Assembly (NCBI GenBank): GCA_051439505.1 | Contig: JBFRWI010000002.1 | Location: forward strand, 60,924 to 92,923 | Direction: 5' to 3' | Length of the DNA stretch: 32,000 nt | From: Hormoscilla sp. | GTDB lineage: Bacteria > Cyanobacteriota > Cyanobacteriia > Cyanobacteriales > Desertifilaceae | Part shown: positions 6,628-32,000 of the stretch, one piece after another | How positions within the stretch are numbered: position 1 is the stretch's first letter | Layout of the letters: each line of letters begins with the position of its first letter | Notes under the pieces: generated by a model | Seen by the model: only the letters and a program-made list of their open reading frames with translations | Databases searched by the model: none | Told to the model about the DNA's origin: nothing | Translations under genes and position numbers: made by a program

Positions 6628-6762
6628 CGTTTTCTCTGGCTGGGTTGGTTGCTTTTCCTGCCCGGTATTCTAACATGCGATCGTCATCCTGCGGCAACCT
6701 GCCGTTATCGGGGGTGTGGTCATAATTAATTGATAGTCGGGTGCATCGCCCGATACATATAT

Positions 6763-6812
6763 AGCCCGCGCAGGCGGGCTTAGTTCGAGTAGCCGGACCC
6801 TTTAGGGTTCGG
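6763..6812. repeat. Paired-hairpin dispersed repeat (hairpin - TAGTTCGAGTAGC linker - hairpin)
   Basis: agcccgc-gcag-gcgggct (6763-6780), then the linker tagttcgagtagc, then ccggaccc-ttta-gggttcgg (6793-6812). Same layout as 23860-23908. Confidence 0.6.
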
Positions 6813-6922
6813 GGCGGACGCTCTTTTCGACGATGATCTGGCTCCGATCGCAGCAGGAGTATGGCTGGGTGCATTATATAATTAACAAAGACAAGCAGAC
6901 CTTAAGAAATATTACAGAGTAG

Positions 6923-8311
<1,389 letters not shown>

Positions 8312-8340
8312 CTGATGACATTGGATGCCTGTCCGACAAG

Positions 8341-8379
8341 GGTGTGGTCAAAAAACAGTTGGTTGTTGTTGACCACACC
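8341..8379. repeat. 11-bp-stem hairpin between pds and crtB
   Basis: ggtgtggtcaa (8341-8351) is complementary to ttgaccacacc (8369-8379), with a 17-nt loop. Confidence 0.7.
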
Positions 8380-8385
8380 CGCGAA

Positions 8386-8407
8386 GGGTGGGCGGTGCCC
8401 ACCCTAC
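8386..8407. repeat. GGTGGGC-N3-GCCCACC palindromic element
   Basis: The sequence is gggtgggcggtgcccaccctac, the reverse orientation of the 9396/9441/22831 copies. Confidence 0.85.
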
Positions 8408-8427
8408 GAATGCAACTGAAGCAGTAA

Positions 8428-9345
8428 ATGAACTCACCTGGCATGAGAAAGCTGGTATCTCTAGAGGAAGCCTATGAAATCTGTCGTCAGATGACGGCCA
8501 AGTACGCGAAGACGTTTTATCTGGGTACGTTATTGATGCCAGAAGCCAAGCGTCGGGCAATTTGGGCGATCTACGCTTGGTGTCGGCGCACGGATGAACT
8601 GGTAGATGGCAGCGATGCCGTGATGACGACGCCGGAAACCCTTGATGGATGGGAAAAACAGCTGGAAGGGGTCTTTGCAGGGGAAGCGATCGATGATTGT
8701 GACCTAGCGTTGGTGGATACCCTGGAAAAATTCCCCTTGGAGATTCAGCCCTTTCGAGACATGATTGCCGGTCAGCGCATGGACCTGTACCGGAGTCGTT
8801 ACGAGACCTTTGAGGAGTTATATTTGTATTGCTATCGGGTGGCGGGTACGGTAGGCTTGATGTCTACCACTGTTATGGGTGTGGATACTTCGGGCTACGC
8901 GGCACCCTGGCAGCGCAACTCTCAACCCTATATTCCTATTAAAGAGGCGATCGCCCTCGGGATAGCAAACCAGCTGACAAATATCCTGCGAGATGTGGGG
9001 GAGGACGCCCACCGGGGCCGCATTTATCTGCCGGAAGAAGATTTAGCTCGGTTTAATTATACCGAGAAGGATTTATTGAATGGAGTCGTAGACGAGCGCT
9101 GGCGCCAGTTCATGCAGTTCCAAATCGAACGGGCCCGCGAGTTCTTCACTCAAGCAGAAACGGGTCTGCGTTTCCTGATTCCCGACGCGAAATGGCCAGT
9201 CTGGTCCGCTTTGATGCTTTATCAGCAGATTTTAGATGCGATCGAGCGCAACCAGTACGATGTCTTTAGTAAAAGAGCCTATGTTTCTACCCCCCGCAAG
9301 TTCCTGAGTTTGCCCGTTGCCTGGTTGCGGGCCCAAGCACTTTAA
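8428..9345 (+). CDS. crtB: Phytoene synthase
   Basis: SLEEAYEICRQMTAKYAKTFYLGTLLMP..RRAIWAIYAWCRRTDELVDG and the squalene/phytoene synthase signature YCYRVAGTVGLM. The start may be ATG 8428 or ATG 8443. Confidence 0.95.
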   Translation: MNSPGMRKLVSLEEAYEICRQMTAKYAKTFYLGTLLMPEAKRRAIWAIYAWCRRTDELVDGSDAVMTTPETLDGWEKQLEGVFAGEAIDDCDLALVDTLEKFPLEIQPFRDMIAGQRMDLYRSRYETFEELYLYCYRVAGTVGLMSTTVMGVDTSGYAAPWQRNSQPYIPIKEAIALGIANQLTNILRDVGEDAHRGRIYLPEEDLARFNYTEKDLLNGVVDERWRQFMQFQIERAREFFTQAETGLRFLIPDAKWPVWSALMLYQQILDAIERNQYDVFSKRAYVSTPRKFLSLPVAWLRAQAL

Positions 9346-9384
9346 TTGGCGATTGCTAATTGCTAATTGCTAATTGCTAATTGC
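9343..9384. repeat. STRR-like heptamer array (TAATTGC) x4 plus degenerate flanking units
   Basis: Perfect units lie at 9357, 9364, 9371 and 9378. The array begins at the crtB stop codon. Confidence 0.9.
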
Positions 9385-9393
9385 GAGTTGGGA

Positions 9394-9476
9394 AGTAGGG
9401 TGGGCACCGCCCACCAAATGCGCTCGGTGTTATTGATAAGTAGGGTGGGCACCGCCCACCAAGTGCGCTCGGTGTT
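9394..9476. repeat. Two 38-bp direct repeats (45-bp period), each with a GGTGGGC-ACC-GCCCACC palindrome
   Basis: agtagggtgggcaccgcccaccaa(a/g)tgcgctcggtgtt at 9394-9431 and 9439-9476. Confidence 0.9.
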
Positions 9477-9600
9477 GACGATCTGAAGCCAAGATTGTCA
9501 ATGCGATCGAACGCAAGCATTATTGTTACATTGTTATAACCATGACTTCACTATAAGTTATACGCTTTCATAAGTTATAGATCTTGGCAATTCACAATTT

Positions 9601-12051
9601 TCAATGAGCGATCGGGATTTTAATAATAAACTCCGTACCCTTTCCCGGTGACGAAATGCAGTTGAGTTTACCCCCATGTTTATCTACTATAATTTGATAG
9701 CTAATAGATAGCCCCAAACCCGTACCAGAACCTACGGGTTTGGTAGTGAAAAAGGGATCGAAGATCTTATTTAAAACATCGGTAGTCATGCCAGGACCAT
9801 TGTCGGCAATGCGCGCGATCGCCCATTTTTTGTCCCGCAGTTCCGTGCGGATCGTAATAGTAGGCGATCTGTCCTTTCGATCCCCCTGAGAATGTAAAGC
9901 ATCGATCGCATTCCCGATAATATGCATAAACACTTGATTGAGCTGACTGGGATAGCAGTTAATTTCTGGCAGTAACCCATATTCTTTAATCACTTCAATT
10001 TCAACTTTACCATCCTTGGGTTTAAGTTTATGGTGTAAAATTAGGAGAGTGTTATCGATACCTTCATGCAGATTGGCGTGCTTCATGTCTGATTCATCTA
10101 GACGCGAGAAGTTTCGCAAAGAGAGGACAATAGCCCGGATGCGATCGGCCCCCATCTGCATCGAATATAACAGTTTCGGAAAGTCTTCTTTAATATATTC
10201 TAAATCTATTGCTTCTGCTGACGCTGCTATTTCCGAGTCAGGTTCTGGATAATGTAGCTGATATAATTCCAGCAAATTCATCAAGTCAGCAGCATATTCT
10301 TTAGCAGGAGTAATGTTACCATAGATGAAGCTCGTAGGATTATTGATTTCATGGGCAATACCAGCCACCATCTGCCCCAAAGAAGCCATTTTCTCACTCT
10401 GAATTAACTGGGCCTGGGTTTGCTGCAACTTGCGCAAGGCCCCTTCCACTGTTTCCTTCGCTTTGCGCAGTTCTTCGGCCTGCTTCTGCTCCGTGACATC
10501 AATGCCGATACTGATAATATAATTAATTTCTCCCTCACTATTCTGGAGAGCCGTGTTCGACCAGGAAATTAGCCGCCGATCGCCATCTTTTGTCAGCCAG
10601 TAGTTTTCATACTCACTCCCAAAAGTGCCTACTTGTAGATCCTCAAAGACTGCCATTACCGCCTCCGTTTCTTCGGGAACTAAAAAGAAATCCCAGAAAT
10701 GCCGATCTCGAACTTCACTAAATGAGTAACCCGTGGTACGCTCACAGGTATGGTTAAAGCGGATTATTCTCCCCTGCAAGTCTAGCACCACAATTAAAGC
10801 ACCAGCGGTCTCGATCACCGCTGAGGCGAAGTTGCGCTCTTCCTTTACTTCTGCAATTAGCTGGCGTAGCTGCAATGTCATCTCATTAAAGGTGTTTGCT
10901 AGCACCCACATTTCGTTGCGCTCTTCAATCTGGACCTGGATATCTAGGTCGCCGCTGCTAATGTCGATCGCGGCGGCGGTTAAGCGCTGCAAGGGCGATA
11001 CAATTTTATAGGAGAAGAAGATGCCCAAGGCTCCAGCTACAAGGATCACGAAAACCAGGGTGAGCAGTATGATGCCGATCGCCTGACGCACTGGCCCGTA
11101 GACTTCTGTTACGGGCAACTCCACGATGACTCTCCAGTTGACCCTAGGCACGGGCGCGATCGCCCCCAGCACTTCCACTCCCCTTAACCCCTGATATTTC
11201 CTCACAGTCTGCTGGCCAGTTAGCATTCCCTTGGTTAAATCCAGAATAAACTCCCGGGCTGAGAGGTCTTGTAGCTGGGCAGTTTCCGGAGAACTTCCTT
11301 TTTGGGCAATTAACTGCAAGCGGTTATCAATGATGTAAGCATAACCCGTAGATCCCAAATCCGCTTGGGAGACCACAAACCAGAGAAATTCCAGATTAAT
11401 CCTGGCCACCAAGACCCCATCTACAAGATCGCGATCGTTGCGTACTGGCACTGCCAGATTTACCACGTGCAACCCTAAAACCGGATCTATTTCTACGGGG
11501 CTGACATAATCTTCCTGGTGCTGGAATGGTCGTAAAAACAGAGGCGAATCAGCCCCGACATTTAGGGATAAATTATCATGGGGCGAAGCTGAGGCCACCA
11601 CCTCACCCCTGGGGTTTAATAGGGCGACAATTTCATAGGCTTCGTTGTGACGAGTCATAGCTTCGAGTAACTTCTGCTGCGCTGTACCGGACAGCTCCGT
11701 CAAGCCTCGTACTAAGGCCAAATAGTTGAGTTTTCCCTGTAAGTCATCTAGGTAAACCTCTATCTCATGGGCCGCTGACTTGCTTCTTTCCTCTTGCAAG
11801 CGGATCGACTGTTGCCACTGAGTCTGGAAACTGACTCTCGTCAGCAGTCCCCCGGCGAGCAGGGAGCTGAACACTGCTAGCAACAGGAAACTGGTTCTTA
11901 ACTGGTTCGCGATTTTCAATCTTGGAAGCTCTCCGGTAGTGCAATCTGAGGGCGATACATCAATTTTGCCACTAATGATGTCTCGTGTAACTGCCTTGAG
12001 AGTAGCTTCTTGTTCTGGGTCAGATTCCAATACTTCGTAGGTTTTGCACAA
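9601..12051 (-). CDS. Multi-domain sensor histidine kinase (extracytoplasmic Cache-like domain, HAMP, PAS, HisKA, HATPase_c)
   Basis: 816-aa ORF. Two TM segments ([16 protein letters not shown]; [20 protein letters not shown]) bracket a ~250-aa sensor region. PAS region ([22 protein letters not shown]). H-box [10 protein letters not shown]-boxes DNGPGM and GTGLGLS. There is no in-frame ATG upstream of TM1, so the start is the TTG at 12051 or another alternative codon. Confidence 0.88.
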
Positions 12052-16208: not shown

Positions 16209-17399
16209 TTAGGCAGATCTTGACTGAGAGAGGCGTTTTACTTCTTCACCTCCTAGCAACTGATGCGCCTCTTCTAGTAAAGCAGGGATTTTGTCTCCAT
16301 GGGGACTATTCGCCAGACATTCGCGCAAGTCCATTTCCCGAACCCGCGAGGCATTATTTCCCGGAAACCAGTGACCTGCGTTACCCAGCAGATTATAGCG
16401 CCCTTTGGCATAGTCAATCATGTCGTAGGCCAGGGCGAGATTCCTCAACCACAGGATAACGGGAATATTGATGTTACCAGGCGTGTGATCGCACTCGGGT
16501 AATCCCACATGCCAGGTTTTCACCCAATCTTCCCCCAGAGTAGTAATTGCCTCCCGTTCCAACCGCCCTAAAATCGGCGGCAATATCTCTCCCGCCCGGT
16601 CTAATAGGGGCAAAACCTGCAAGTGTTCGTCAAAATCCGTCGGTCGTGCCACCCCCACACTGAGAGTATGTACCTGCTTGTGAGAAAGACAAAACAGGTC
16701 ATTAAACTGCATCGGAAGAAGGGGTTTACATAACTCTAGCAACTTGGGCGGCGGATCGTAAAGTTTCCCCCCCTTATCGGAAGGACTGATGATGAAAACA
16801 CCCAGATCGTGACGTTGCGCAGCTTCTATAGCAGGCCAGTTAACTTGATTGATGTAGTACCAGTGGAGATTCACGTAGTCAAACTGGTCGGTTTCAATAG
16901 TTTTGACAATGATGTCCGTCGGACCGTGAGTCGAGAAGCCAATAAACCGCACCTTGCCTTCCTCTTGCAGCTTCCGGGCCACCTCCAGACAGCCACCCTC
17001 TCGGATACTCTCGTGCAGCAACTCCGCCGTATTGATACCTTGCAGGGAGAGCAAATCAACATGGTCCAGCTTCAGGAAAGCCAGGGACTGCTCGAAATCA
17101 CGCCGAAACTCGACAGTGTCTGACCGGGGACTAATCTTGGTCTGGACAATTATCTGTTCGCGAGGAAACTGGGGCAAAAGCTGGCCTAGTTGCATCTCCG
17201 ATGTGCCATAGATCCTAGCCGTTTCAAAGTGATTGATGCCGACTTCTAAAGACCGACGAATATTTGCTTCCAGATTGCACTGGTTCTCCTCTGGAATCGA
17301 AGATATTAGCACATCCTCCCACTTATATTGATAGCGCATGCCACCGCAGGAGAATACTGGCATAAGTAGTTCTGTGCGCCCAAATCGTCTGTATTCCAT
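16209..17399 (-). CDS. Aldo/keto reductase family oxidoreductase (paralog 1)
   Basis: 396 aa. (Y)RRFGRT.L..PVFS.GGMR N-terminus and AKR-like core (INH.ETAR.YGTSE, VDLLSL.GIN). Highly similar to 17522-18703. Confidence 0.85.
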
Positions 17400-17521: not shown

Positions 17522-18703
17522 TTACGACTGAGAAAGGCGTTTTACTTCTTCACCTCCTAGCAACTGATGGGCCTCTTCTAGTAAAGCAGGGATTTTGTCC
17601 CCGTGGGGACTATTCGCCAAACATTCGCGCAAGTCCAGTTGCCTCACCCGCGAAGCCTGATTTCCCGGAAACCAGTGACCTCCGTTACCCAGCAGGTTAT
17701 AGCGCTTTTTGGCATAGTCAATCATGTCGTAGGCCAGGGCGAGATTTCTCAACCACAGGATAATGGGAATATTTATGTTATCAGGCGTCCGATCGTACTC
17801 GGGTAATCCGACATGCCAGGTTTTCACCCAATCTTCCTCCAGAGTAGTAATTGCCTCCTGTTCCAATCGCCCTAAAATCGGCGGCAATATCTCCTCCGCC
17901 CGGTCTAACAGGGGTAAAACCTCCAAATGTTCGTCAAAATCTGTGGGTCGCGCCGCCCCCAAACTGAGAGTATGTACCTGCTTGTGAGAAAGACAAAACA
18001 GGTCATTAAACTGCATCGGACTAAGGGGTTTACAGAGTTCTACCAACTTGGGCGGCGGCGCGTAAAGTTTGCCCCCCTTATCGGACGGACTGATGATAAA
18101 AACACCCATATCCTGGCGTTCCGCAGCTTCGATCGCAGGCCAGTTAACTTGATTGATGTAGTACCAGTGCAGATTCACGTAGTCAAACTGGCCAGTCTCA
18201 ATAGTTTTGACAATAATGTCTGTCGGACCGTGAGTCGAGAAACCAATAAACCGCACCTTGCCTTCGGTTTGCAGCTTGCGGGCCACATCCAGACAGCCAC
18301 CCGGTCGGATACTGTCGTGCAGCAACTCATCAGTATTGATACCGTGTAGGGACAGCAAATCGACATAGTCCAGCTTCAGGAAAGCCAGGGACTGCTCAAA
18401 CAGACGCAGAAACTCGACTGTGTCTGACTTGGGATAAACCTTGGTCTGGACAATCAGCTGTTCGCGAGGAAACTGGGGCAGAATCTTGCCCAGCTGCATC
18501 TCCGAGGTGCCATAGTCCCTAGCCGTTTCTATGTGATTGATGCCGACTTCCACAGACCGGCGAATAGTCGCTTCCAGATTGCGCTGGTTGTCCTGGGGAA
18601 TCTCCGATGCTGGCAGATCCTGCCACTTGTATTGATAGCGCATACCGCCGCAGGAGAATACTGGTATTTGCAATTGAGTGCGCCCAAATCGTCTGTATTG
18701 CAT
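17522..18703 (-). CDS. Aldo/keto reductase family oxidoreductase (paralog 2)
   Basis: 393 aa, collinear with 16209-17399 along its full length with scattered substitutions. Confidence 0.85.
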   Translation of the reverse strand: MQYRRFGRTQLQIPVFSCGGMRYQYKWQDLPASEIPQDNQRNLEATIRRSVEVGINHIETARDYGTSEMQLGKILPQFPREQLIVQTKVYPKSDTVEFLRLFEQSLAFLKLDYVDLLSLHGINTDELLHDSIRPGGCLDVARKLQTEGKVRFIGFSTHGPTDIIVKTIETGQFDYVNLHWYYINQVNWPAIEAAERQDMGVFIISPSDKGGKLYAPPPKLVELCKPLSPMQFNDLFCLSHKQVHTLSLGAARPTDFDEHLEVLPLLDRAEEILPPILGRLEQEAITTLEEDWVKTWHVGLPEYDRTPDNINIPIILWLRNLALAYDMIDYAKKRYNLLGNGGHWFPGNQASRVRQLDLRECLANSPHGDKIPALLEEAHQLLGGEEVKRLSQS

Positions 18704-22822: not shown

Positions 22823-22830
22823 TCAGTTGG

Positions 22831-22850
22831 TAGGGTGGGCATTGCCCACC
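22831..22850. repeat. GGTGGGC-N3-GCCCACC palindromic element
   Basis: tagggtgggcattgcccacc, flanked by AGTCAGT heptamers (22811-22826) and an aacaattaaca array (22865-22898). Confidence 0.85.
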
Positions 22851-22898
22851 ATGTCAGTGGGTAGTGGTAAAATAACAATTAACAACTAACAATTAACA

Positions 22899-23690
22899 AT
22901 GAAAATGCCTTACCTAGCCCGAATTTTAATTTACCCGATTAAAGCTTTGGATGGAGTTGCTGTCAAGCAAGCAAAGGTAATGACTGGCGGGGCGCTAGAA
23001 CATGACCGAGAATTTGCTATGTTTGACGCTCGCAACAGGTTTGTCAATGCCAAGCGCAATGTTAAGGTTCATGAACTGAGGACTAAATTTGATGGCTCAT
23101 TTGAAAAGGTGGCAATTCAGGCAGGGGAAGCAGAACATGTTTTTCATCTGCATCGGGAACGCAGTCAGATGGAAACATGGTTGAGTGAATACTTGGGTTT
23201 GTCAGTCCATTTGCAGCAAAACTCACAGCAGGGCTTTCCAGATGATACTGAGGCTTTTGGCCCGACGGTAATTAGTACGGAGACGATCGCCCAAGTAGCA
23301 TCTTGGTTTCCGGGAGTGGGCGTCGAAGAGATGCGATCGCGCCTGCGGGCCAATATAGAAATAGAGGGGGTGCCAGCATTTTGGGAAGACCGGTTGTTTG
23401 CTGCCGACAGTAATGCTAGCATATGGTTTAAGATCTCAGATGTGTTACTCGAAGGAGTAAATCCCTGTCAGCGTTGCGTGGTACCCACAAGAAACTCTCT
23501 GACTGGGGAAGCATACCCAGATTTCCAAAAGATATTCGCGGCCAAGCGGAAAGAAACTTTGCCGGAGTGGGTTGCAGCATCTCGCTTCAAGCATTTTTAC
23601 AGAGTGAGTGTGAACACGCGCATCCCCCGATCGGAAGCGGGTAAGATTTTACAGGTAGGCGATGAAGTGCAGATACTGGAGGTGAATTGA
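22899..23690 (+). CDS. MOSC domain-containing protein (N-terminal beta-barrel + MOSC)
   Basis: LARILIYPIKALDG is the MOSC_N signature. The C-terminal region NPCQRCVVPT carries the conserved MOSC cysteine. Confidence 0.8.
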   Translation: MKMPYLARILIYPIKALDGVAVKQAKVMTGGALEHDREFAMFDARNRFVNAKRNVKVHELRTKFDGSFEKVAIQAGEAEHVFHLHRERSQMETWLSEYLGLSVHLQQNSQQGFPDDTEAFGPTVISTETIAQVASWFPGVGVEEMRSRLRANIEIEGVPAFWEDRLFAADSNASIWFKISDVLLEGVNPCQRCVVPTRNSLTGEAYPDFQKIFAAKRKETLPEWVAASRFKHFYRVSVNTRIPRSEAGKILQVGDEVQILEVN

Positions 23691-23859
23691 GAATGGTGAA
23701 TTGAGAATGGCGTATACGCAGTGCGCGTAGCGCTATGGAAAATGGAAAATTGAGAATGGAAAATTGATTGAGGTATATTCGCGGCGATTTTCCATGCGAT
23801 CTAAAAATGAAAAATGGCATGCTATCGACGATCTGCCTGATGATAGAATAATAATTGCA

Positions 23860-23957: not shown

Positions 23958-25352
23958 ATGACAAATACGCGCAAAGAAACGGACAGCATGGGGGAAATAG
24001 AAGTCCCCGCCGATCGCTATTGGGGGGCCCAAACCCAGCGATCGCTAAAATATTTCTCGATCGGGCAAGACAAGATCCCGGCAGAAGTAATTGCGGCCTT
24101 CGGGATTCTGAAAAAAGCGGCAGCCCTCAGCAATGCAGAATTGGGTAAACTACCAGAAGAGAAAGCTAAACTGATCGTGCAGGCGGCATCGGAAGTAATT
24201 GATGGTAAGCTGGATGGTAACTTCCCGTTGCATGTCTGGATGACGGGTAGCGGCACCCAATGTAACATGAATGTGAATGAAGTGATCTCGAATCGGGCGA
24301 TCGAACTGGCGGGGGGAGTAATGGGAAGTAAGAACCCCATTCATCCCAACGATCACGTGAATATGTCTCAATCTTCCAACGATACTTTCCCAACGGCGAT
24401 GCATATTGCTGTCGCAGTGGCATGCGATCGGCGATTGATTCCGAAGGTGAAAAAGATGCGGGACGCCCTGCAACAAAAGTCGGAAGAATTTGCCGAGATT
24501 GTCAAGATCGGTCGCACCCATCTCCAGGATGCCGTACCTCTGACTTTGGGACAGGAATTCTCCGGTTATGTAGCCCAACTGGATGCTGCTTTGCTGCGGA
24601 TCGATCGGGTATTGCCGGAACTCTACGAACTGGCGATCGGGGGAACGGCGGTGGGCACGGGATTGAATGCGACCAAGGGGTTCGCTGCCACTGCTGTCAA
24701 GCACATTAGCAATATTACCGGATTACCCTTTACCGAAGCCCCCAATAAGTTTGCTGCGATCGCGGCCCATGATGCGATCGTGATGGCCAGCGGATCCTTG
24801 CGGACTCTCGCTGGTGCTTTAATGAAAATTGCCTCCGACATTCGCTTTTTAGCAAGTGGTCCTCGTTGCGGTTTAGGTGAACTGATCTTACCAGAAAACG
24901 AACCCGGTTCTTCGATCATGCCGGGCAAAGTAAACCCCACCCAATGCGAAGCGATGACAATGGTAGCAGCACAAATCATGGGCTATGATACCGCAGTGGC
25001 GATCGCGGGTTCGTCAGGACATTTCGAGTTAAACACCTATAAACCCATGATGGTGTTTAACGTCATTCAATCCATCAATCTGATCGCGGACAGCTGCAAC
25101 AACTTCACGGATTTTCTGCTAGCGGGACTAAAGCCGAATCGGAAGAAAATCGAGTATTATTTAGAACAGTCATTGATGCTAGTGACGGCATTAAGTCCGA
25201 CCATTGGCTATGACAAAGCTGCCCAAGTGGCGCACTTCGCCCTGGAAAAAGACATGACCTTAAAGCAAGCTTGTCTGGAATTGGGGTATGTTTCGGAAAC
25301 GGAGTTCGATCGGATTGTCGTGCCTAGCAAAATGGCCCATCCAGAAATGTAA
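23958..25352 (+). CDS. fumC: Class II fumarate hydratase
   Basis: [16 protein letters not shown] signature, [14 protein letters not shown] and [16 protein letters not shown] at 23958 (the track's GTG at 23952 is also possible). Confidence 0.96.
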
Positions 25353-25412
25353 ATGGAGAATGGAGAATGGAGAATAGAGAATTGTGCGATTTTCCATTCT
25401 CCATTCTCAATT
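25353..25412. terminator. Inverted heptamer arrays forming a long hairpin between convergent genes
   Basis: atggaga x3 + atagaga (25353-25380), spacer attgtgcgatt, then the complementary ttccat tctccat tctcaat (to ~25412). Lies between the fumC stop (25352) and the stop of 25436-25912. Confidence 0.5.
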
Positions 25413-25435
25413 AACTATTCACAATTAGTCCGGTG

Positions 25436-25912
25436 TCATTCTTGCAATTGAAAAGTGAATATTTCCTCGATCGTCATCGAATCAAACCAAGGTTGGCGGA
25501 CGCGGATAAAGTCTCCACCTTCGGGATCGAAAGACTGGATAAATTGCTTGGTTCCTGCCAGTCCGAGAGCCTTCCGAAGGGCCTCAATTCCCATTTGCCG
25601 AATCTGGGCCTGAGTCAGCTTGCTAGTATCGAGAGCCGTCTCCAACCGGTGATGTGCTAAATCCTTTTGCTTTTTGCGATCCACCTGTTCCTCTTGCTGC
25701 TCTTGCTCTTTGGCTAATTCCACAATTTCCGCCAGGGTAATATCTCCGAGCAGTTGATCCCTATCTCGGGTATAATCGCCACTGCCGTTGGAAAATTGAT
25801 GGATAAATCGCACCATACCCACCGACCCCAGAGCTTGACTTAGAGCTTCTCTTCCCGCTTCCATAATATCTTCGTGAGTTACCGGGCTAACTTCTATCAT
25901 TGCTTCTATCAT
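25436..25912 (-). CDS. Putative PIN-partner (antitoxin-like) protein with two internal repeats
   Basis: 158 aa. Repeat 1 IMEAGREALSQALGSVGMVRFIHQFSNGSGDYTRDRDQLLGDITLAEIVELAKE. Repeat 2 IRQMGIEALRKALGLAGTKQFIQSFDPEGGDFIRVRQPWFDSMTIEEIFTF. An acidic/basic linker joins them. The start (ATG 25912 or 25900) overlaps the PIN gene's 3' end. Confidence 0.6.
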   Translation of the reverse strand: MIEAMIEVSPVTHEDIMEAGREALSQALGSVGMVRFIHQFSNGSGDYTRDRDQLLGDITLAEIVELAKEQEQQEEQVDRKKQKDLAHHRLETALDTSKLTQAQIRQMGIEALRKALGLAGTKQFIQSFDPEGGDFIRVRQPWFDSMTIEEIFTFQLQE

Positions 25913-26354
25913 TGATAACCTCCTCGCTCCACCGAGCCGGGTTCTCTACTCTAACTTTTAGCATAGCGCTAGACCGAACTGCCAAACGCAACATTCTGTC
26001 ATCGGTTGTCAGCAATACGTCGGCATTGCCATTTTCGGCACAGGCGATATGTAGAGCATCAAAATATTTAAATCCTAGGCCAGCCAATTCCTGCGTTCGG
26101 GTGATTATATCATCGCTTAAGGTAACTTTATTTTTCGCTAAACCCGCCCAGAGCATCATTTGCTGTTTTCTTTCGACCGTAGGGGTCCGAGCTAACTCTA
26201 TATCAATCGCCGTGCTACCCAACAAGTGCCACTGAGCATTTCGACAACGGTCTATTATGAGTTCTACCGCCTGCGCTTCCAGACTCACCCGTTCTTGGCT
26301 CAGATCGTCAAAAGGCCGATTCAGGCAACAAATATCTAAATAGATTAAAAACAT
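25887..26354 (-). CDS. PIN-domain ribonuclease (VapC-like toxin)
   Basis: MFLIYLDICCLNRPFDD supplies the first acidic residue. FDALHIACAENGNADVLLTTDDRMLR is the typical C-terminal PIN motif. 155 aa. Confidence 0.75.
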   Translation of the reverse strand: MFLIYLDICCLNRPFDDLSQERVSLEAQAVELIIDRCRNAQWHLLGSTAIDIELARTPTVERKQQMMLWAGLAKNKVTLSDDIITRTQELAGLGFKYFDALHIACAENGNADVLLTTDDRMLRLAVRSSAMLKVRVENPARWSEEVINDRSNDRS

Positions 26355-26539: not shown

Positions 26540-27118
26540 ATGGTATATTTACAATCGCCTCTGGAATTAGAACTGCAACTCACGGACGAGCAATTTTTTG
26601 AGCTTTGTCAAAAGCATCGTAATTTGAAATTTGAGCGCAATGCAACTGGAGATTTAATCATTATGTCACCAACTGGAGGAATAACTAGCGATCGCAACTC
26701 GGATATTAATTTTCAACTCAGGGCCTGGAATCGCGATCGAAAGCTGGGAAAAGTTTTTGAATCATCCGGCGGATTTAAGTTACCCAATGGGGCCGATCGC
26801 TCTCTCGATGCTTCTTGGGTGAAACTGCAACGCTGGAATGCTTTAACATTAGAACAGCAGGCCAAATTAGTACCCTTATGCCCTGATTTTGTGGTGGAAT
26901 TGCGCTCTCCTTCCGATGCCTTAAGTAAGGTGCAGCAAAAGATGAATGAATACATAGAAAATGGGGCAGAATTGGGATGGTTGATAGACCCCAAACGGCA
27001 AGTCGTGGAGGTTTATAGGCCCTCACAGGATGCGGAAGTGTTGCAGTCGCCCAAGACTGTATCGGGAGAAGCGGTACTACCGGGCTTTGTTTTGGACTTG
27101 ACGGAAATTTTCTCTTAG
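26540..27118 (+). CDS. Uma2 family (DUF820) restriction-endonuclease-fold protein
   Basis: KFERNATGDLIIMSPTGG, DASWV and CPDFVVELRSPSD match the Uma2 pattern. 192 aa. Confidence 0.8.
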   Translation: MVYLQSPLELELQLTDEQFFELCQKHRNLKFERNATGDLIIMSPTGGITSDRNSDINFQLRAWNRDRKLGKVFESSGGFKLPNGADRSLDASWVKLQRWNALTLEQQAKLVPLCPDFVVELRSPSDALSKVQQKMNEYIENGAELGWLIDPKRQVVEVYRPSQDAEVLQSPKTVSGEAVLPGFVLDLTEIFS

Positions 27119-27222
27119 GCGATCTGAAGAAAGTTGCCCGGTTTTCGAGATATATTTATCTCCCGATCGAGCGGAGAACGATAGTTTGAATTCTGTTATT
27201 GCTTTGCTTTCCAATCTGGCAA

Positions 27223-27449
27223 GGGGTCTTGTCTGGACCCCTACTTGTTCCCAACCACAACGGCATGTTATGCTAAGATTAGCAGCTAAGCCATGTTCAT
27301 GTTTGCGCGACTTATATCAACAAGTTATTCTATAATTACAAGAAATTAAGGCATCGGAACCAAACGGAACCGGTGCCGAGGAGACAAACTGTACAGTACC
27401 GGTGATACCTGTATAATTCACTTACCCTTGACAAGCAATGAAGATAAAT
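27223..27449 (+). repeat. Direct repeat copy A (~227 bp) flanking the ATPase/protease cassette
   Basis: Aligns with 31447-31681 with about 8 substitutions and one 8-bp indel. It ends in ATGAAGATAAA followed by a 12-codon dead-end ORF (MKINMMLMNKSS*). Confidence 0.95.
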
Positions 27450-27512
27450 ATGATGTTGATGAATAAATCAAGTTAAAATAGTATTGTACTCTCGCATTGC
27501 TGTCCAGGAACT

Positions 27513-28580
27513 ATGAAAGCAGAGCTTGTTAAGAGGTTGTTTAGGGCGATCGCTAGTGGAGACCAAGAGGCGATCGACAAACTCACGTACATAGTAATTT
27601 CAGAAGAGCGTAAGAAGGGACACACATTGTTAGCCGATCAGTTAGAAAATATTACTAAGCACCAGTCAAAGTCAAATGGTTCCCAAAGGGTACCACAGAC
27701 AGAGCGATCGCTGCGGGAAAAATCGGATAAAAGCGCCTGTAGCACGACTAAACCTGCGATGGAAGAACAGGCGTTCCCGCCTATTCTACAGGATCTAAGC
27801 ACCCTGCCAACAAATAAGCGATTTGATTTTCCTCTAATTACGATCGTACCTCCAGAGAAATTACGGCATCATATGGTGCTGCCGGAGAAAATTGAGAAAC
27901 GTTTCCGGCGAATTGAACGGGAGTATGCTGCCAGAGATAGGTTAGCTCATTATGGCTTGCGCTACAGACAAAAAATTCTTTTGTACGGTCCTCCGGGCTG
28001 TGGTAAAACCTTAGGAGCTGAACGTTTAGCTTGGCACACCGGTTTACCGATGGTCAAGGTGCGATTTGATGCCATAGTGTCGTCTTTTTTGGGGGAGACG
28101 GCAAGTAATTTGAGCGTCGTGTTTGAAAAAGTGGACAAGATGGACTGCTTGTTGTTTCTGGATGAATGTGACTCCCTGGCTAAGTCACGGTCAGACCCCC
28201 AGGAAGTTGGTGAAATTAAGCGTGTGGTGAATACTTTTCTGCAACTACTTGACGATTACTCCCCATCTTCTGGTATGATAGTGGCAGCCACTAACCTCAA
28301 CGAGTCCCTCGATCGGGCTCTGTGGAGGCGATTTGATGATTTAATTGAAGTGCCACTACCGGGAGAGCAAGAACTGCGGTTGATTTTGTCAGAAAAATTC
28401 TCGACAGTGGAAGTAGGTGCGATCGACTGGTCGCGGATAATTGCGCAAATGAGTGGCTTCTCTGCTGCTCAAGCAGAAAAAGTAGCTCAAGATGCCGCGA
28501 AACGCGCTATTCTAGATCGAGAAGAACTCGTAATTCAGCCACATCTAGAAGAGGCGATCGCCGAAATCAAGGTTGTTTAG
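27513..28580 (+). CDS. AAA+ ATPase (IetA-like)
   Basis: Walker A LLYGPPGCGKT, Walker B LLFLDECD, sensor-1 VAATN, arginine region LDRALWRRFD. The ~150-aa N-terminal region has no motif I recognise. Confidence 0.85.
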   Translation: MKAELVKRLFRAIASGDQEAIDKLTYIVISEERKKGHTLLADQLENITKHQSKSNGSQRVPQTERSLREKSDKSACSTTKPAMEEQAFPPILQDLSTLPTNKRFDFPLITIVPPEKLRHHMVLPEKIEKRFRRIEREYAARDRLAHYGLRYRQKILLYGPPGCGKTLGAERLAWHTGLPMVKVRFDAIVSSFLGETASNLSVVFEKVDKMDCLLFLDECDSLAKSRSDPQEVGEIKRVVNTFLQLLDDYSPSSGMIVAATNLNESLDRALWRRFDDLIEVPLPGEQELRLILSEKFSTVEVGAIDWSRIIAQMSGFSAAQAEKVAQDAAKRAILDREELVIQPHLEEAIAEIKVV

Positions 28581-28601
28581 GAAAATTCCGAGGAGAATAA
28601 A

Positions 28602-31187
28602 ATGGTTGAACGTTATGAAATGTTTCCACATATTCAGCTTAGGCAGACAGCCGAGGGCACTGCTGTATCGACCGGAGGATCGAGAAGGAAAAATTCTCGC
28701 ACAGAGTGGAATAAGAGTAACCGAGGGGAACATGGCAGTAGGCTGAAGGGTGTCGCTGACTCTATAGTTGCTGACTGGGAAAATGTCCAAGATCAACGGC
28801 AAGAAGAAGGAAAACCCCTACTTGAAGCTAGGCGTCTTACCTTACTGACAGATCCTGAATCTTTCGATCCAGATAAGCTAAAAGCTTATGGCATTGAGGT
28901 AATTTTAGAATTAGAAAATGGGTATATAATCGGAGCGTCAGCAGATTTAGAACTGACTAAGTTGCAAGAAAAGATCGAGAAATTCATCAATGATGAGCGA
29001 GGAGGAGGTAATGTTGCTGAAGTTTGGGAGCTAATTGATGGAATTAAAAGCCCGGAGTTTATTCTGTCTCCTGAATTATGGGAGCATTGGGATAAAGTTA
29101 ATGACGAACAGATATACAATATTGATGTAGGAATTGCCTGTTTAGGACTTCAATCTAAGCTTTCCGACCCTCCAGTTAGAGAACCAGATGAAAGTGATGA
29201 TAAATACGCAAAAAGACTTAAAACATGGAGCGATAAACGCGATCTACAATATCAAGAGTGGGATGAACTAGCTATGGCAAGAGAAAATGAATTGGAAGAG
29301 TTGATCTCTAATTATAACGGAAATTTACTTAGTTTAGAGGAAGATCGGATTCCAGAGTCTGCCAAGTTACCAGATAGTTTTTCCTGTCGCATACAAATTT
29401 CAGGTAAGGGGTTAAAAGACTTAGTTTATAACTTTCCCTATATTTTTGATGTCAGCAAACCCGATCAGTTTGCCGAACTCGTGCAACCGCAAGGTTTATC
29501 TGATGGTGAAGACCCCTCTTTTCAGCTAGAACCACCTGGCCCAAATGCTCCCAAGGTCTGTGTTATTGATAGTGGGATTCAGGAAAGACATCCTCTTCTG
29601 AAAGCAGCAATTGATTCAGAGAACTCACGATCTTGGTTGCCTGGAAATCAACAAACTGCTGATTATGTTGAAAATGGTGGACATGGAACCAGGGTCGCTG
29701 GGGCGGTACTTTATCCTCGGACTATACCTCGGAGTGGGAAGCAACCAGCTATTTGCTGGATTCAAAATGCGAGAGTCCTTAATGATAACTGCAAACTACC
29801 TGAAAATCTATTTCCCCCTAATATGTTGGGGGAGATTGTAGAGTTATATAAAGGAACGAGAATATTTAATCATTCTATTACCGGAGCGCTTCCATGTCGC
29901 ACCCAATACATGAGTGCTTGGGCAGCGGCGATCGATCAACTGACGTGGCAAAAGGATATTCTCTTGATTGTGGCGGCTGGTAACTTGCCTTTATACAGTA
30001 GAATTGGTCCAACCCGATTATCTATTCCAGAACATCTGGCAGCAAATCGACCTTATCCAGATTATCTTTTAAAGGCAGGGTGCCGAATTGCGAACCCGGC
30101 ACAAAGTTTCCAAGCTTTAACGGTGGGATCGATTGCTCATAATTCTTATTATGCCCGGCCTTATTCTTCAATAGCGCAGAAAGATATGCCTTCAGCCTTC
30201 TCCTGCTCGGGATTGGGAATTTGGGATACGATCAAGCCAGAAGTTGTTGAATATGGGGGCGATCTGGTAAAGGATGAGAGTGTACCACCTAACCTTACTT
30301 ACCATGAAAGCATTTGTCCTGAATTAGTGCGATCGACATTAAACGGTGGTCATGCAATTGCCTCGGACCAAGTAGGAACCTCATTTGCAGCGCCAAAAGT
30401 CAGCCATATTGCAGCTCGTCTCGCCTCTGAGTTACCTGATGAAAGTTGTCTTTTGTACCGCGCCTTAATAGTTCAGTCAGCACGCTGGCCAGAATGGACA
30501 ATGGCAGATAATGTGGATCAACTGCATGTATTGCGTCAAATAGGTTATGGTATTCCCAATATTGAACGCTGTTTAGCCAATTATTCCAATCGGATCACGA
30601 TGATTACTACAGGAGAACGCCGAATTAAAGCTCGACAAGCTCAGATTTACGAAGTAAAACTACCTAATTCATTGCGTTCTCAAGGAGATGAGTTAGAGAT
30701 TTTAGTGGAAGTTACCCTGTCATACAAAGCTCAACCCCGTCGAACCAGACGACATCGACGCAAATATCTTTCAACTTGGCTTGACTGGGATTGTAGCAAG
30801 AGAGGAGAAGACCCCGAAAGCTTTCTTTCCCGACTTTTGCAAGAACATGACGCCCCAGAAAATGCGGATCCAGGAGAAAGTATTTTCAAGTGGACCCTGG
30901 GAAAGCAAAAGAATTACGGAATAATTAAAGATGTTTCTCGGGGTGCAGGAACTATTCAGAAGGATTGGACTGTTGTCAAGTCATTTGAACTGCGAGAATC
31001 TTTCTGCATTGCAGTGGTTGGACATCAAGGTTGGAACAACGATCCGGATGCTAGCGTTCCCTATTCTCTAGTTGTTAGCTTTGAAGCGATCCAAGCTAAT
31101 GTACCAATTTATCAGGAAATATCCTCAGCTCAAGTACAGATGGAAGTTGTCGATCGGGTAGAAATTAAATCCACAGGGAGGATATGA
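28602..31187 (+). CDS. Cytoplasmic S8 (subtilisin-like) serine peptidase, 861 aa (IetS-like)
   Basis: aggaga RBS at 28591-28596. Catalytic triad in D-H-S order: VCVIDSGI, GGHGTRVAG, GTSFAAPKVSH. No signal peptide. Large uncharacterised N-terminal (~310 aa) and C-terminal (~200 aa) regions. Confidence 0.85.
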   Translation: MVERYEMFPHIQLRQTAEGTAVSTGGSRRKNSRTEWNKSNRGEHGSRLKGVADSIVADWENVQDQRQEEGKPLLEARRLTLLTDPESFDPDKLKAYGIEVILELENGYIIGASADLELTKLQEKIEKFINDERGGGNVAEVWELIDGIKSPEFILSPELWEHWDKVNDEQIYNIDVGIACLGLQSKLSDPPVREPDESDDKYAKRLKTWSDKRDLQYQEWDELAMARENELEELISNYNGNLLSLEEDRIPESAKLPDSFSCRIQISGKGLKDLVYNFPYIFDVSKPDQFAELVQPQGLSDGEDPSFQLEPPGPNAPKVCVIDSGIQERHPLLKAAIDSENSRSWLPGNQQTADYVENGGHGTRVAGAVLYPRTIPRSGKQPAICWIQNARVLNDNCKLPENLFPPNMLGEIVELYKGTRIFNHSITGALPCRTQYMSAWAAAIDQLTWQKDILLIVAAGNLPLYSRIGPTRLSIPEHLAANRPYPDYLLKAGCRIANPAQSFQALTVGSIAHNSYYARPYSSIAQKDMPSAFSCSGLGIWDTIKPEVVEYGGDLVKDESVPPNLTYHESICPELVRSTLNGGHAIASDQVGTSFAAPKVSHIAARLASELPDESCLLYRALIVQSARWPEWTMADNVDQLHVLRQIGYGIPNIERCLANYSNRITMITTGERRIKARQAQIYEVKLPNSLRSQGDELEILVEVTLSYKAQPRRTRRHRRKYLSTWLDWDCSKRGEDPESFLSRLLQEHDAPENADPGESIFKWTLGKQKNYGIIKDVSRGAGTIQKDWTVVKSFELRESFCIAVVGHQGWNNDPDASVPYSLVVSFEAIQANVPIYQEISSAQVQMEVVDRVEIKSTGRI

Positions 31188-31292
31188 GGCGATCGCGCGC
31201 TCCGGTGCTGACTTAAGGCGCGAACTTGCATGACAGTTATAAACAGCGCTCAAAAACGGGCGATCGCTTCTAGATCATCGGTCAAGTAGAAT

Positions 31293-31359
31293 AGAAACCG
31301 GGTTTCTCGTGATAGCAGCAACGAGAAATCAATGATTTTACCAGAGAAACCCGGTTTCT
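31293..31359. repeat. Hairpin cluster built from AGAAACC(G/C)GGTTTCT palindromes
   Basis: agaaaccgggtttct (31293-31307) and agaaacccggtttct (31345-31359) are mutual reverse complements. The inner stem is tttctcgt (31303-31310) / acgagaaa (31321-31328). Same motif as 12318-12350. Confidence 0.7.
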
Positions 31360-31446
31360 TGACCGACGTTCTCGCCATTGCCAGTTTTTCGACCTGCTCG
31401 CAATTTCAATATTGGATATTCTAGCATGAAAGCTGGGCCAGCGATC

Positions 31447-31681
31447 GGGGTCTTGCCTGGACCCAGACTTGCCCCCAACCACAACGGCATGTTATGCTAA
31501 GATTAGCAGCTAAGCCATGTTCATGTTTGCGCGACTTCTATCAACAAGTTATTCTATAATTACAAGAAATTAAGGCATCGGAACCAAACGGAACCGGTGC
31601 CGAGGAGATAAACTGTACAGTACCGGTGTCTACCTCATACCTGCATAATTCACTTACCCTTGACAAGCAATGAAGATAAAA
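31447..31681 (+). repeat. Direct repeat copy B (~235 bp), continuous with the downstream gene start
   Basis: See copy A. It contains TTGACA at 31660-31665 and the ATG at 31670. Confidence 0.95.
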
Positions 31682-32000
31682 TTTGAATTTTTTGATATGG
31701 ATTCTCTCAAATTTATTCGCATCCGGCAAAATTGCAGTCAACCTGAGTTAACAGATATTCCCGATGCCATTAAAACGGGAATTCAACAGTTAGCCCCGGG
31801 AAAATTCATTCAACCAGGACAAACAGTCGCGATCGCAGTTGGCAGTCGAGGGATTGCCAATTTAGCCCAAATTGTTCAGACCATTGGACATGAATTGATC
31901 GCTTTGGGGGCACATCCTTTTATTGTCCCAGCAATGGGGTCTCATGGAGGGGGAACAGCGGCAGGACAAGCGGCAGTTTTGGCGAGTTATGGCATTACAG
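31670..32000 (+). CDS. LarA-like / lactate racemase N-terminal domain (DUF2088) protein, 3' end beyond the window
   Basis: Open frame to the window end: MKIKFEFFDMDSLKFIRIRQ...GQTVAIAVGSRGIANL...PFIVPAMGSHGGGTAAGQ. The start is ATG 31670 or the in-frame ATG 31697. Family assignment is from motif memory only. Confidence 0.6.
   Translation, partial: MKIKFEFFDMDSLKFIRIRQNCSQPELTDIPDAIKTGIQQLAPGKFIQPGQTVAIAVGSRGIANLAQIVQTIGHELIALGAHPFIVPAMGSHGGGTAAGQAAVLASYGIT

Follow-up and report, generated by a model that had tools for sequence, protein, structure and literature searches.

An IetAS cassette between composite direct repeats in a Hormoscilla genome: probable scar of a duplicated and trimmed defence block

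We analysed a 32-kb stretch of DNA (32,000 nt, here called the window) from Hormoscilla sp., a sponge-symbiont cyanobacterium whose sequence is a metagenome-assembled genome (MAG). Towards the right end of the window the genes ietA and ietS are bracketed by a pair of repeats, copy A and copy B. A Uma2-family gene is found to the left of copy A, and a larA-like gene to the right of copy B (Table 1). The locus was compared with the related Hormoscilla loci L001 (strain GUM202), L002 (from a 6.88-Mb genome), L003, L004, L085, L088, L090, L091 and L092. The closest relative is L004, an independent assembly of another strain that shares 94-95% identity with the window. L003, L090, L091 and L092 represent one arrangement found in three samples, L091 being the same JGI contig as L003. 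The close relatives are few, and six arrangements were found among them.

Table 1. Features of the repeat-bracketed locus, in window coordinates
Feature	Position	Strand	Evidence or remark
Uma2-family gene, left neighbour	26540-27118	+	Pfam Uma2 E=5.5e-42; BLAST to L003 1450-2163 and L002 7140-7176
Repeat copy A, upstream region of ietAS	27223-27448	+	right side ancestral (leader continuity with L002, L003, L004); left edge a rearrangement breakpoint
nifU 5' pseudogene fragment	27229-27385 (copy A), 31453-31609 (copy B)	+	tblastn with NifU of L003; DNA alignment to intact nifU 5' regions
ietA leader, left end of strain-conserved block	27380-27512	+	conserved block begins at 27380/27387 in L002, L003, L004
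ietA, AAA+ ATPase, 355 aa	27513-28580	+	PADLOC IetA E=3.5e-77 (residues 9-349); Pfam AAA E=2e-30
ietS, S8 subtilase, 861 aa	28602-31187	+	PADLOC IetS E=1.9e-60; Pfam Peptidase_S8 E=8.6e-33
Conserved block tail, tail-to-head junction	31188-31271	+	block ends at 31257/31271 in L001, L003, L004; HIP1 GCGATCGC at 31260-31267
98-bp insertion with inverted-repeat arms (GAAACCGGGTTTCTC / GAGAAACCCGGTTTC)	31272-31369		absent from otherwise collinear L004
Putative head of second block copy	31370-31446	+	31370-31410 matches L003 6047-6087 (3' end of HEC-01B ORF call); 31400-31446 matches L003 flank
Repeat copy B	31447-31680	+	left side ancestral (flank as in relatives); right edge a novel larA-like junction
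larA-like gene (putative lactate-racemase N-terminal domain)	31682-32000, cut by window end	+	homologue alignments

The translation of ietA contains both a Walker A (GPPGCGKT) and a Walker B (LLFLDECD) motif, and that of ietS contains the D/H/S motifs VIDSGI, HGTRVAG and GTSFAAP. IetS is full length, with 100% coverage against homologues of 860-870 amino acids, and the two genes follow each other on the same strand with an intergenic gap of 21 nt. By these features, the cassette is an intact IetAS system, a known defence or toxin-antitoxin type. IetAS was described as a plasmid-stabilisation toxin-antitoxin pair, in which the protease is the toxin and the ATPase the antitoxin, with anti-phage activity of unknown mechanism (PMC13069673). 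The cassette resembles such systems in that two co-oriented genes, first the ATPase and then the subtilase, have their motifs intact. Although the genes are ordinary, their setting is unlike that of a typical IetAS: they are chromosomal, they belong to a cyanobacterial symbiont, and they are preceded by a conserved leader with a 12-codon mini-open reading frame (mini-ORF), which lies behind a nifU pseudogene fragment. While the module is intact in the window, it is decayed in relatives, where ietS is split (L003) or truncated (L002), or ietA carries a frameshifting deletion (L001). A partial tandem duplicate of ietA was also observed in L001 (7216-8080 and 9078-9950). Both of these copies lack 199 bp, equivalent to 27666-27864 of the window, with a frameshift as the result, and no ietA gene is called there; the IetA of strain GUM202 is probably a pseudogene.

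A repeat search, MAFFT and a global alignment identified copies A and B as direct repeats of about 227 and 235 bp, respectively. They differ by 8 substitutions over 226 aligned positions and by one 8-bp indel, TCTACCTC, present only in copy B (31629-31636), and their starts are separated by 4,224 bp. The longest perfect runs are 70 and 64 nt, and the BLAST E value of about 1e-100 puts the similarity far beyond chance. An earlier note on this DNA, made from the sequence alone, had described two near-identical segments with about 8 substitutions, an 8-bp indel and this same spacing, and the alignment confirmed the description. Since the first position past the repeats is a mismatch (T at 27449, A at 31681), both copies end exactly at ATGAAGATAAA. 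From there copy A continues as a 12-codon ORF, MKINMMLMNKSS followed by a stop codon (27438-27476), and ietA starts 64 nt past the repeat, where the note had placed an ATPase gene about 60 bp after copy A. In copy B the frame stays open and leads into the larA-like ORF (MKIKFEFFDMDSLKF...). A third copy was found in the window neither by the repeat search nor by BLAST. The only two long ORFs between the repeats are ietA and ietS and, in agreement with the note, the ORF and Pfam scans detected no integrase or transposase there. No inverted ends or otherwise defined element ends (att sites, or terminal inverted repeats with a target duplication) were found for the repeat-bracketed unit.

The note had also proposed that the cassette is a unit that can be excised. 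The first part agrees with the finding that the repeats bracket a discrete defence module, which occurs in different contexts in different strains. The second is also sustained, as the identical runs of 70 and 64 nt are long and similar enough for recombinational loss. RecA-dependent recombination between the two copies could delete ietAS, and this loss may be counter-selected if IetAS acts as a toxin-antitoxin system (PMC13069673).

Alignments resolved each repeat into a composite of a frameshifted 5' fragment of a nifU pseudogene and the first approximately 65 nt of the ietA leader. The nifU fragment comprises the nifU upstream region and codons 6-32; its frame is broken, and a 39-nt stretch that contains the start codon is deleted. 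When the NifU sequence of L003 was used in tblastn searches, the peptide LRDLYQQVIL was matched in copy A at 10 of 10 residues (27303-27332, frame +3), and residues 17-32 were matched to YKKLRHRNQTEPVPR in frame +1 with 11/16 identities. These matches, over residues 6-32 and in two frames, are present in both repeat copies. At the DNA level, the repeat core shares 80-87% identity with the intact nifU 5' regions of L001, L002, L003 and L085. The equivalent orphan nifU element in L003 is still in frame, from the nifU ATG through codon 31. A 75-nt core of the repeat recurs in the related loci at about 80% identity, and every extra copy is located at a nifU 5' end or beside ietAS. The note's reservation that the repeat might prove to be a common dispersed element was therefore correct in that copies of the core recur, but they do so at this locus only and come from the neighbouring nifU. 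Distant IetAS loci (Microcoleus, Scytonema) adjoin groEL or transketolase and have no nifU, and therefore the association with nifU is Hormoscilla-specific.

The right-hand part of both repeats, from 27380/87 on, is the beginning of the ietA leader. It is also the start of a block, ending at 31257/71, that shares 92-94% identity with L002, L003 and L004; the match to the L001 block begins only at 27498. The mini-ORF in the leader has kept its length of 12 codons in four strains, the window (copy A), L002 (about 8821-8859), L003 (about 8179-8217) and L004 (about 1786-1824). Its peptide exists in the versions MKINMMLMNKSS, MKIKMMLMNKSS and MKIKIILMNKLS, and its stop codon is 36 nt 5' of ietA. 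This mini-ORF could be a leader peptide, or its persistence could be plain conservation of an AT-rich leader. As the ATGAAGATAAA mini-ORF precedes ietA in L002, L003 and L004, with no larA there within the DNA examined, the ATG shared by both repeats belongs to the ietA leader and not to LarA. The earlier note had taken the repeat for the promoter and first codons of the downstream gene, an identification that has to be replaced by that of a nifU pseudogene fragment plus ietA leader.

The larA-like gene itself agrees with this correction. Its homologues start at, or align from, about residue 10-17 of the window ORF, and M10 (ATG 31697) matches their starts. The native start of the gene is therefore probably ATG 31697, while the ATG at 31670, supplied by the ietA leader, has become joined to it in frame and lengthens the ORF by 9 codons (junction sequence, AAGCAATGAAGATAAAATTTGAATTTTTTGATATGG). 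The note's statement that copy B runs into the start of the LarA-like gene is thus right as to the in-frame run-on, but the start is not the native one. Since the mini-ORF lies 5' of ietA in the relatives and the LarA homologues align only from residue 10-17 or so, what had been called a 12-codon dead end in copy A is ancestral, and it is the LarA fusion that is derived. The best identities, 52-59%, were to proteins of Latescibacterota, Anaerolineales and Planctomycetota. Searches of 5.8 billion proteins and 185,579 species genomes yielded no homologue from cyanobacteria, and no larA-like gene was seen within the DNA examined of the related loci. When the window flanks were compared with L001 and L002 by tblastx, no hidden larA or toxin-antitoxin genes appeared. 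The 110 visible residues, from a gene cut by the window end, gave no Pfam match at E<=0.001; they align to proteins that carry PF09861 or are named as lactate-racemase-domain proteins. IetS has 100% identity to a protein from a 117,594-bp contig of an NCBI 'Hormoscilla sp.' MAG. Among the annotated proteins of the source no match to the larA-like ORF was found, while its neighbours are all present (MGK7899916-22), and therefore the ORF was probably annotated as a pseudogene. A HIP1 site within the first 170 nt of the gene (31829-31836) and a genome-typical G+C content of 0.474 hint that it has long resided in a cyanobacterial genome rather than being a recent import. At this locus, nonetheless, the larA-like gene appears to be the newcomer and IetAS the older resident.

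The order of segments differs between the window and the relatives. In L003, L090 and L092 it is Uma2 ... D - HEC-01B/A - flank - R - leader - ietAS - tail - nifU, where R is the repeat element, D a short segment, and flank the sequence to the left of R. The corresponding series in the window is Uma2 - R - leader - ietAS - tail - 98-bp insert - D - flank - R - larA. Compared in this way, the 4,224-bp period of the window is a circular permutation of the relatives' block, with its tail joined to its head. The tail and D are joined at GGGCGATCGCC, a HIP1 site, and the same join is found in L004. The 98-bp insert, which interrupts the ietS tail, sits just past this HIP1 site, with its arms at 31293-31308 and 31344-31359; it resembles a miniature inverted-repeat element, of which neither the window nor the related loci yielded a further copy. 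Between D and the flank, about 1.7 kb containing the HEC-01 genes is deleted in the window, and a CAATTTC/CAATATTC microhomology is present at the join. In L003-type strains HEC-01A and HEC-01B form a candidate defence pair that adjoins IetAS (L003 5972-7800, minus strand; PADLOC E=1e-141 and 1.5e-46). Of this region, the window has only a trace of about 40 nt (31370-31410).

On the side of copy B, window 31400-31681 aligns to L003 7817-8191. The flank, 45-50 nt lying to the left of copy B (string TTCAATATTGGATATT(C/T)TAGCATGAAAGCTGGGCCAGCGATCGG), has one difference between the window and L003, and a recognisable version of this left flank is also carried by L001 and L002. On the side of copy A, the Uma2 gene is syntenic with the relatives, but in L003 5.7 kb separate it from the repeat element, and L002 retains only 37 nt of it. 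Copy A has a breakpoint at its left edge, because the homology that the Uma2 side shares with L003 ends at 27217, just short of the repeat. The L003 block (5844-12034, about 6-6.2 kb) is bounded by direct repeats that end in AGGTCGAGGGGCGATCGCC. L085 has neither ietAS nor the repeat element; there a DUF7689 remnant leads straight to nifU, with one HIP1 site (about 11256-11262, reverse complement). The earlier note had suggested a search in related strains for an empty site consisting of Uma2, one repeat and LarA. None was found in the 10 related loci compared, which include L001-L004, L085, L088 and L090-L092, and the only 'empty' relative is L085, where the whole block between fumC and nifU is missing.

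These comparisons also give each copy a polarity. The right side of copy A is ancestral, as the leader is followed by ietA in L002-L004 as well, and the left side of copy B is ancestral, as the same flank precedes the element in the relatives. When the differences between the copies were polarised by the relatives, copy B was ancestral at 6 of the 8 substitutions and at the 8-bp indel. Copy A has the derived state at sites 1-5 and 8-9, and copy B at sites 6-7; five of the changes in copy A are crowded into the 18 nt next to its left breakpoint. Both copies share derived deletions of 39 nt and about 45 nt and an extra C in ACTGTACAG, which are absent from the other strains, and they are therefore each other's closest relatives. 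A model in which copy B is a nifU 5' region converted by copy A was rejected, since it is the orphan element's flank that lies before copy B and not the ietS tail, which lies before nifU in L003.

On balance, we lean towards the view that the repeats are the scar of an IetAS block that was duplicated head-to-tail, or re-entered as a circle, and was later trimmed. This view builds on what the repeats consist of, how their flanks are polarised, the tail-to-head junction shared with L004 and the absence of larA from the examined DNA of the relatives, all of which the comparison showed. A tail-to-head join that closes one unit and a bit is the signature of tandem duplication or of circle re-entry. 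The order and mechanism that we infer are as follows. A block consisting of flank, nifU pseudogene fragment, leader, ietAS and tail would have been duplicated head-to-tail, either by unequal exchange between flanking short HIP1-containing repeats or by a circular copy recombining into the resident one. The tandem and circle routes fit the footprint equally well because their products are identical. Copy A would then be the module's own upstream region, and copy B the remnant of the second, tandem block copy. Trimming would have involved a deletion that brought the Uma2 side up to the left end of copy A and a microhomology deletion that removed the HEC-01 genes ahead of copy B. In a further step, the second block copy would have been cut after the third codon of the mini-ORF and joined to the larA-like gene 16 nt upstream of its own ATG. 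The locus is prone to tandem duplication, as shown by the partial ietA copy in L001 and by a 310-bp nifU duplication in L001 and L002. The earlier note had recognised the footprint of Campbell-type integration or of duplication, and as a duplication footprint, which either event formally fits, this stands; the accompanying idea of an insertion into a larA promoter does not.

Several points weigh against this history. It needs three or four separate events. The Uma2/copy A and copy B/larA junctions are unique to the window and have no independent support, and the DNA was followed only to position 32000, so that what lies to the right of the larA-like gene is outside the window. A promoter role of the repeat is putative, being indicated by consensus-like motifs alone. 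Furthermore, copy A is more similar to copy B than to the leader of L004, although L004 has the same tail/D junction. The closeness of the two copies requires either a later gene conversion between the copies or a tail-D adjacency that is older than the duplication.

A possible but rather doubtful alternative is that ietAS was re-acquired as a unit, when a 4.2-kb circle (flank - R - leader - ietAS - tail - D) entered a resident Uma2 - R - larA locus by a single crossover. The product of this crossover would have exactly the observed order, with copy A keeping the resident left flank and copy B the circle-derived one. The tail/D junction is that expected from a circularised L003-type block, and an exchange inside the repeat would fit the mosaic of ancestral and derived states. 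However, the resident R would already hold 65 nt of the ietA leader, and thus the target site itself would descend from an ietAS locus, at the cost of extra events. A Uma2-R-larA locus was not found in any relative compared and, as copies A and B share derived characters that are absent elsewhere, the donor would have to be of the same lineage. The re-integration of a circle is structurally compatible with the data but less economical than duplication and trimming of a resident block.

A broader proposal, which we consider unlikely, is that homology drives an integrase-free traffic of cassettes in the fumC-nifU island of Hormoscilla, in which IetAS, with or without HEC-01, would leave as a circle via its flanking HIP1-containing repeats and re-enter at HIP1 or through the nifU-derived segment that it carries. 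If true, it would explain why the strains include permuted arrangements, orphan 5' fragments of nifU and an empty site. The nifU fragment would then be a portable homology arm, and a promoter for whatever lands behind it, here the larA-like gene.

Since the source is a MAG, the arrangement could also be an assembly artefact, in which a circular or tandem ietAS unit, or the haplotype of a second strain, was threaded as a loop through the shared repeat and the true chromosome has one repeat. The identical runs of 64 and 70 nt could bridge k-mer graphs, and the Uma2/A and B/larA junctions are unique to this contig. Nonetheless, the copies differ at 8 sites and by the indel, which implies that both variants exist in the reads, and the internal junctions (R/leader, tail/D, flank/R) were each confirmed in independent assemblies. 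Moreover, switching within the graph would not make novel Uma2/A and B/larA boundaries. We regard such an artefact as very unlikely.

Compared with known processes, the locus resembles a tandem duplication or Campbell integration in that a single unit, circularly permuted relative to that of the relatives, is enclosed by direct repeats and is joined at a short repeated sequence. It differs in that the edges of the repeats in the window are set by the later breakpoints Uma2/A and B/larA, and no vector, integrase or circle is in evidence. Some genomic islands, such as the integrative elements that target dusA, enter the 5' end of a gene, carry a replacement 5' end and leave an orphan fragment behind. 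The likeness is seen in L003-type strains, where ietAS has an orphan nifU 5' fragment (upstream region and codons 1-31) on one side and an intact nifU on the other, and the orphan and intact 5' regions form direct repeats with 85% identity. L001 and L002 show a second event of this kind, the 310-bp duplication. Unlike the dusA-type islands, these loci have no integrase, their truncation points differ by event (codon about 32 versus about 69), and the right-hand copy in the window is a copy of orphan plus leader, not nifU.

The second nifU duplication (L001 12700-14300, L002 20101-21900) was observed as a 310-bp segment consisting of 102 bp of upstream sequence and codons 1-69. Its copies enclose an insert of 1.1 kb, for which the gene call is RusA in L001 and AHJR-like in L002, and the two loci are orthologous (92.8%). 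In L002 the nifU 5' copies are 100% identical over 355 bp, with a period of 1,445 bp. L003 and L085 are empty for the insert.

HIP1 sites are hyper-abundant in cyanobacteria (PMC5861425), and HIP1 improves homology-dependent transformation (bioRxiv 10.1101/2024.09.10.611283). Junctions of the island were observed at HIP1 at both ends of the L003 block, at the single site of L085, and at the tail-to-head join of the window and L004. The likeness to exchange at HIP1 is that the L003 block boundaries, the L085 empty site and the window/L004 junction all fall at HIP1 GCGATCGC. Against this, the density of sites is high, with 28 in the 32-kb window, so that a coincidence at the junctions is not improbable, and a causal role of HIP1 here is putative.

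The earlier note had regarded the repeat as a duplicated promoter. A consensus promoter-like site, TGTACA-16-TATAAT, is found in copy A at 27390-27417, where it was created by the 8-bp deletion and a C-to-T change. Copy B lacks this sole consensus site. As promoter-like matches in the region (7 found versus 8.2 expected from shuffles) do not exceed chance, the site is only a lead, and the duplicated promoter is a putative one. The nifU-derived part plausibly brings nifU upstream signals before ietAS, and now before larA. Another candidate, in which a hairpin at the left end acts as a terminator that was improved in copy A, was rejected, as its energy is equal in both copies.

The repeat had no Rfam match at the gathering score, and a permissive scan gave only a chance snoRNA (E=7.9). 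Its fold is not better than that of shuffles (z = -1.9 on the plus strand, -1.0 on the minus strand). A 371-nt query spanning copy A (27150-27520) had no BLAST match in plasmid or phage collections. Exact searches also found nothing with a 28-mer among viral sequences, a 21-mer among genomes and metagenomes, or a 24-mer common to all leader copies among metagenomes; the metagenome negative is weak, as the JGI contig of L003 contains the 24-mer and was not returned. Although the 75-nt core recurs at about 80% identity, it is extremely improbable that the repeat represents some dispersed element, mobile or regulatory (a miniature inverted-repeat transposable element, a small RNA gene or a riboswitch) that occurs twice by chance, and this candidate was rejected because the core proved to be NifU codons 6-32 by translation, its extra copies are confined to the nifU 5' end or the ietAS neighbourhood, the window has two copies only, there is no Rfam, plasmid, phage or oligomer match, and the fold is like that of shuffles.

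The repeats are thus an ordinary rearrangement scar around a known system, IetAS, in a plastic and hyper-variable fumC-nifU island, and they define no new class. Their value is mainly local, as they show how IetAS has been moved about, duplicated and degraded in a single hot spot of a sponge-symbiont genome. They also correct a misreading, since what looked like a duplicated promoter with first codons belongs to the leader of a defence operon and a dead nifU fragment. The strain series, which spans an empty site, a single block, a permuted or duplicated block and pseudogenised copies, illustrates in compact form how a defence island can turn over in nature with no recognisable recombinase, and it lends itself to asking whether HIP1 sites or carried gene fragments guide such exchanges.

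Elsewhere in the island, a PIN-domain gene (25887-26354) overlaps a gene for a 158-aa protein of unknown family (25436-25912), on the minus strand, and the two are probably a toxin-antitoxin pair. This pair is kept beside fumC in L085 and L088; beyond it, the strains differ throughout. Runs of GAGAATG / GGAGAAT heptamers are found on both sides of fumC (23685-23782 and 25345-25426), and the run downstream of fumC forms an imperfect palindrome with its complement. Three tandem units of about 230 nt (92% and 78% identical) at 1360-2057 lie inside a minus-strand ORF (1353-2384), which suggests a repeat-domain protein. A 300-nt direct repeat with 92% identity (16222-16521 and 17526-17825) occupies the 3' ends of adjacent minus-strand ORFs (16209-17399 and 17522-18703), which are probably tandem paralogues. 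Finally, a 44-nt element with the hairpin GGGTGGGCACCGCCCACC occurs as a tandem pair at 9388-9476 and as a third copy 13 kb away, at 22823-22866, each just past the end of a gene; it is probably a repeated terminator-like palindrome.

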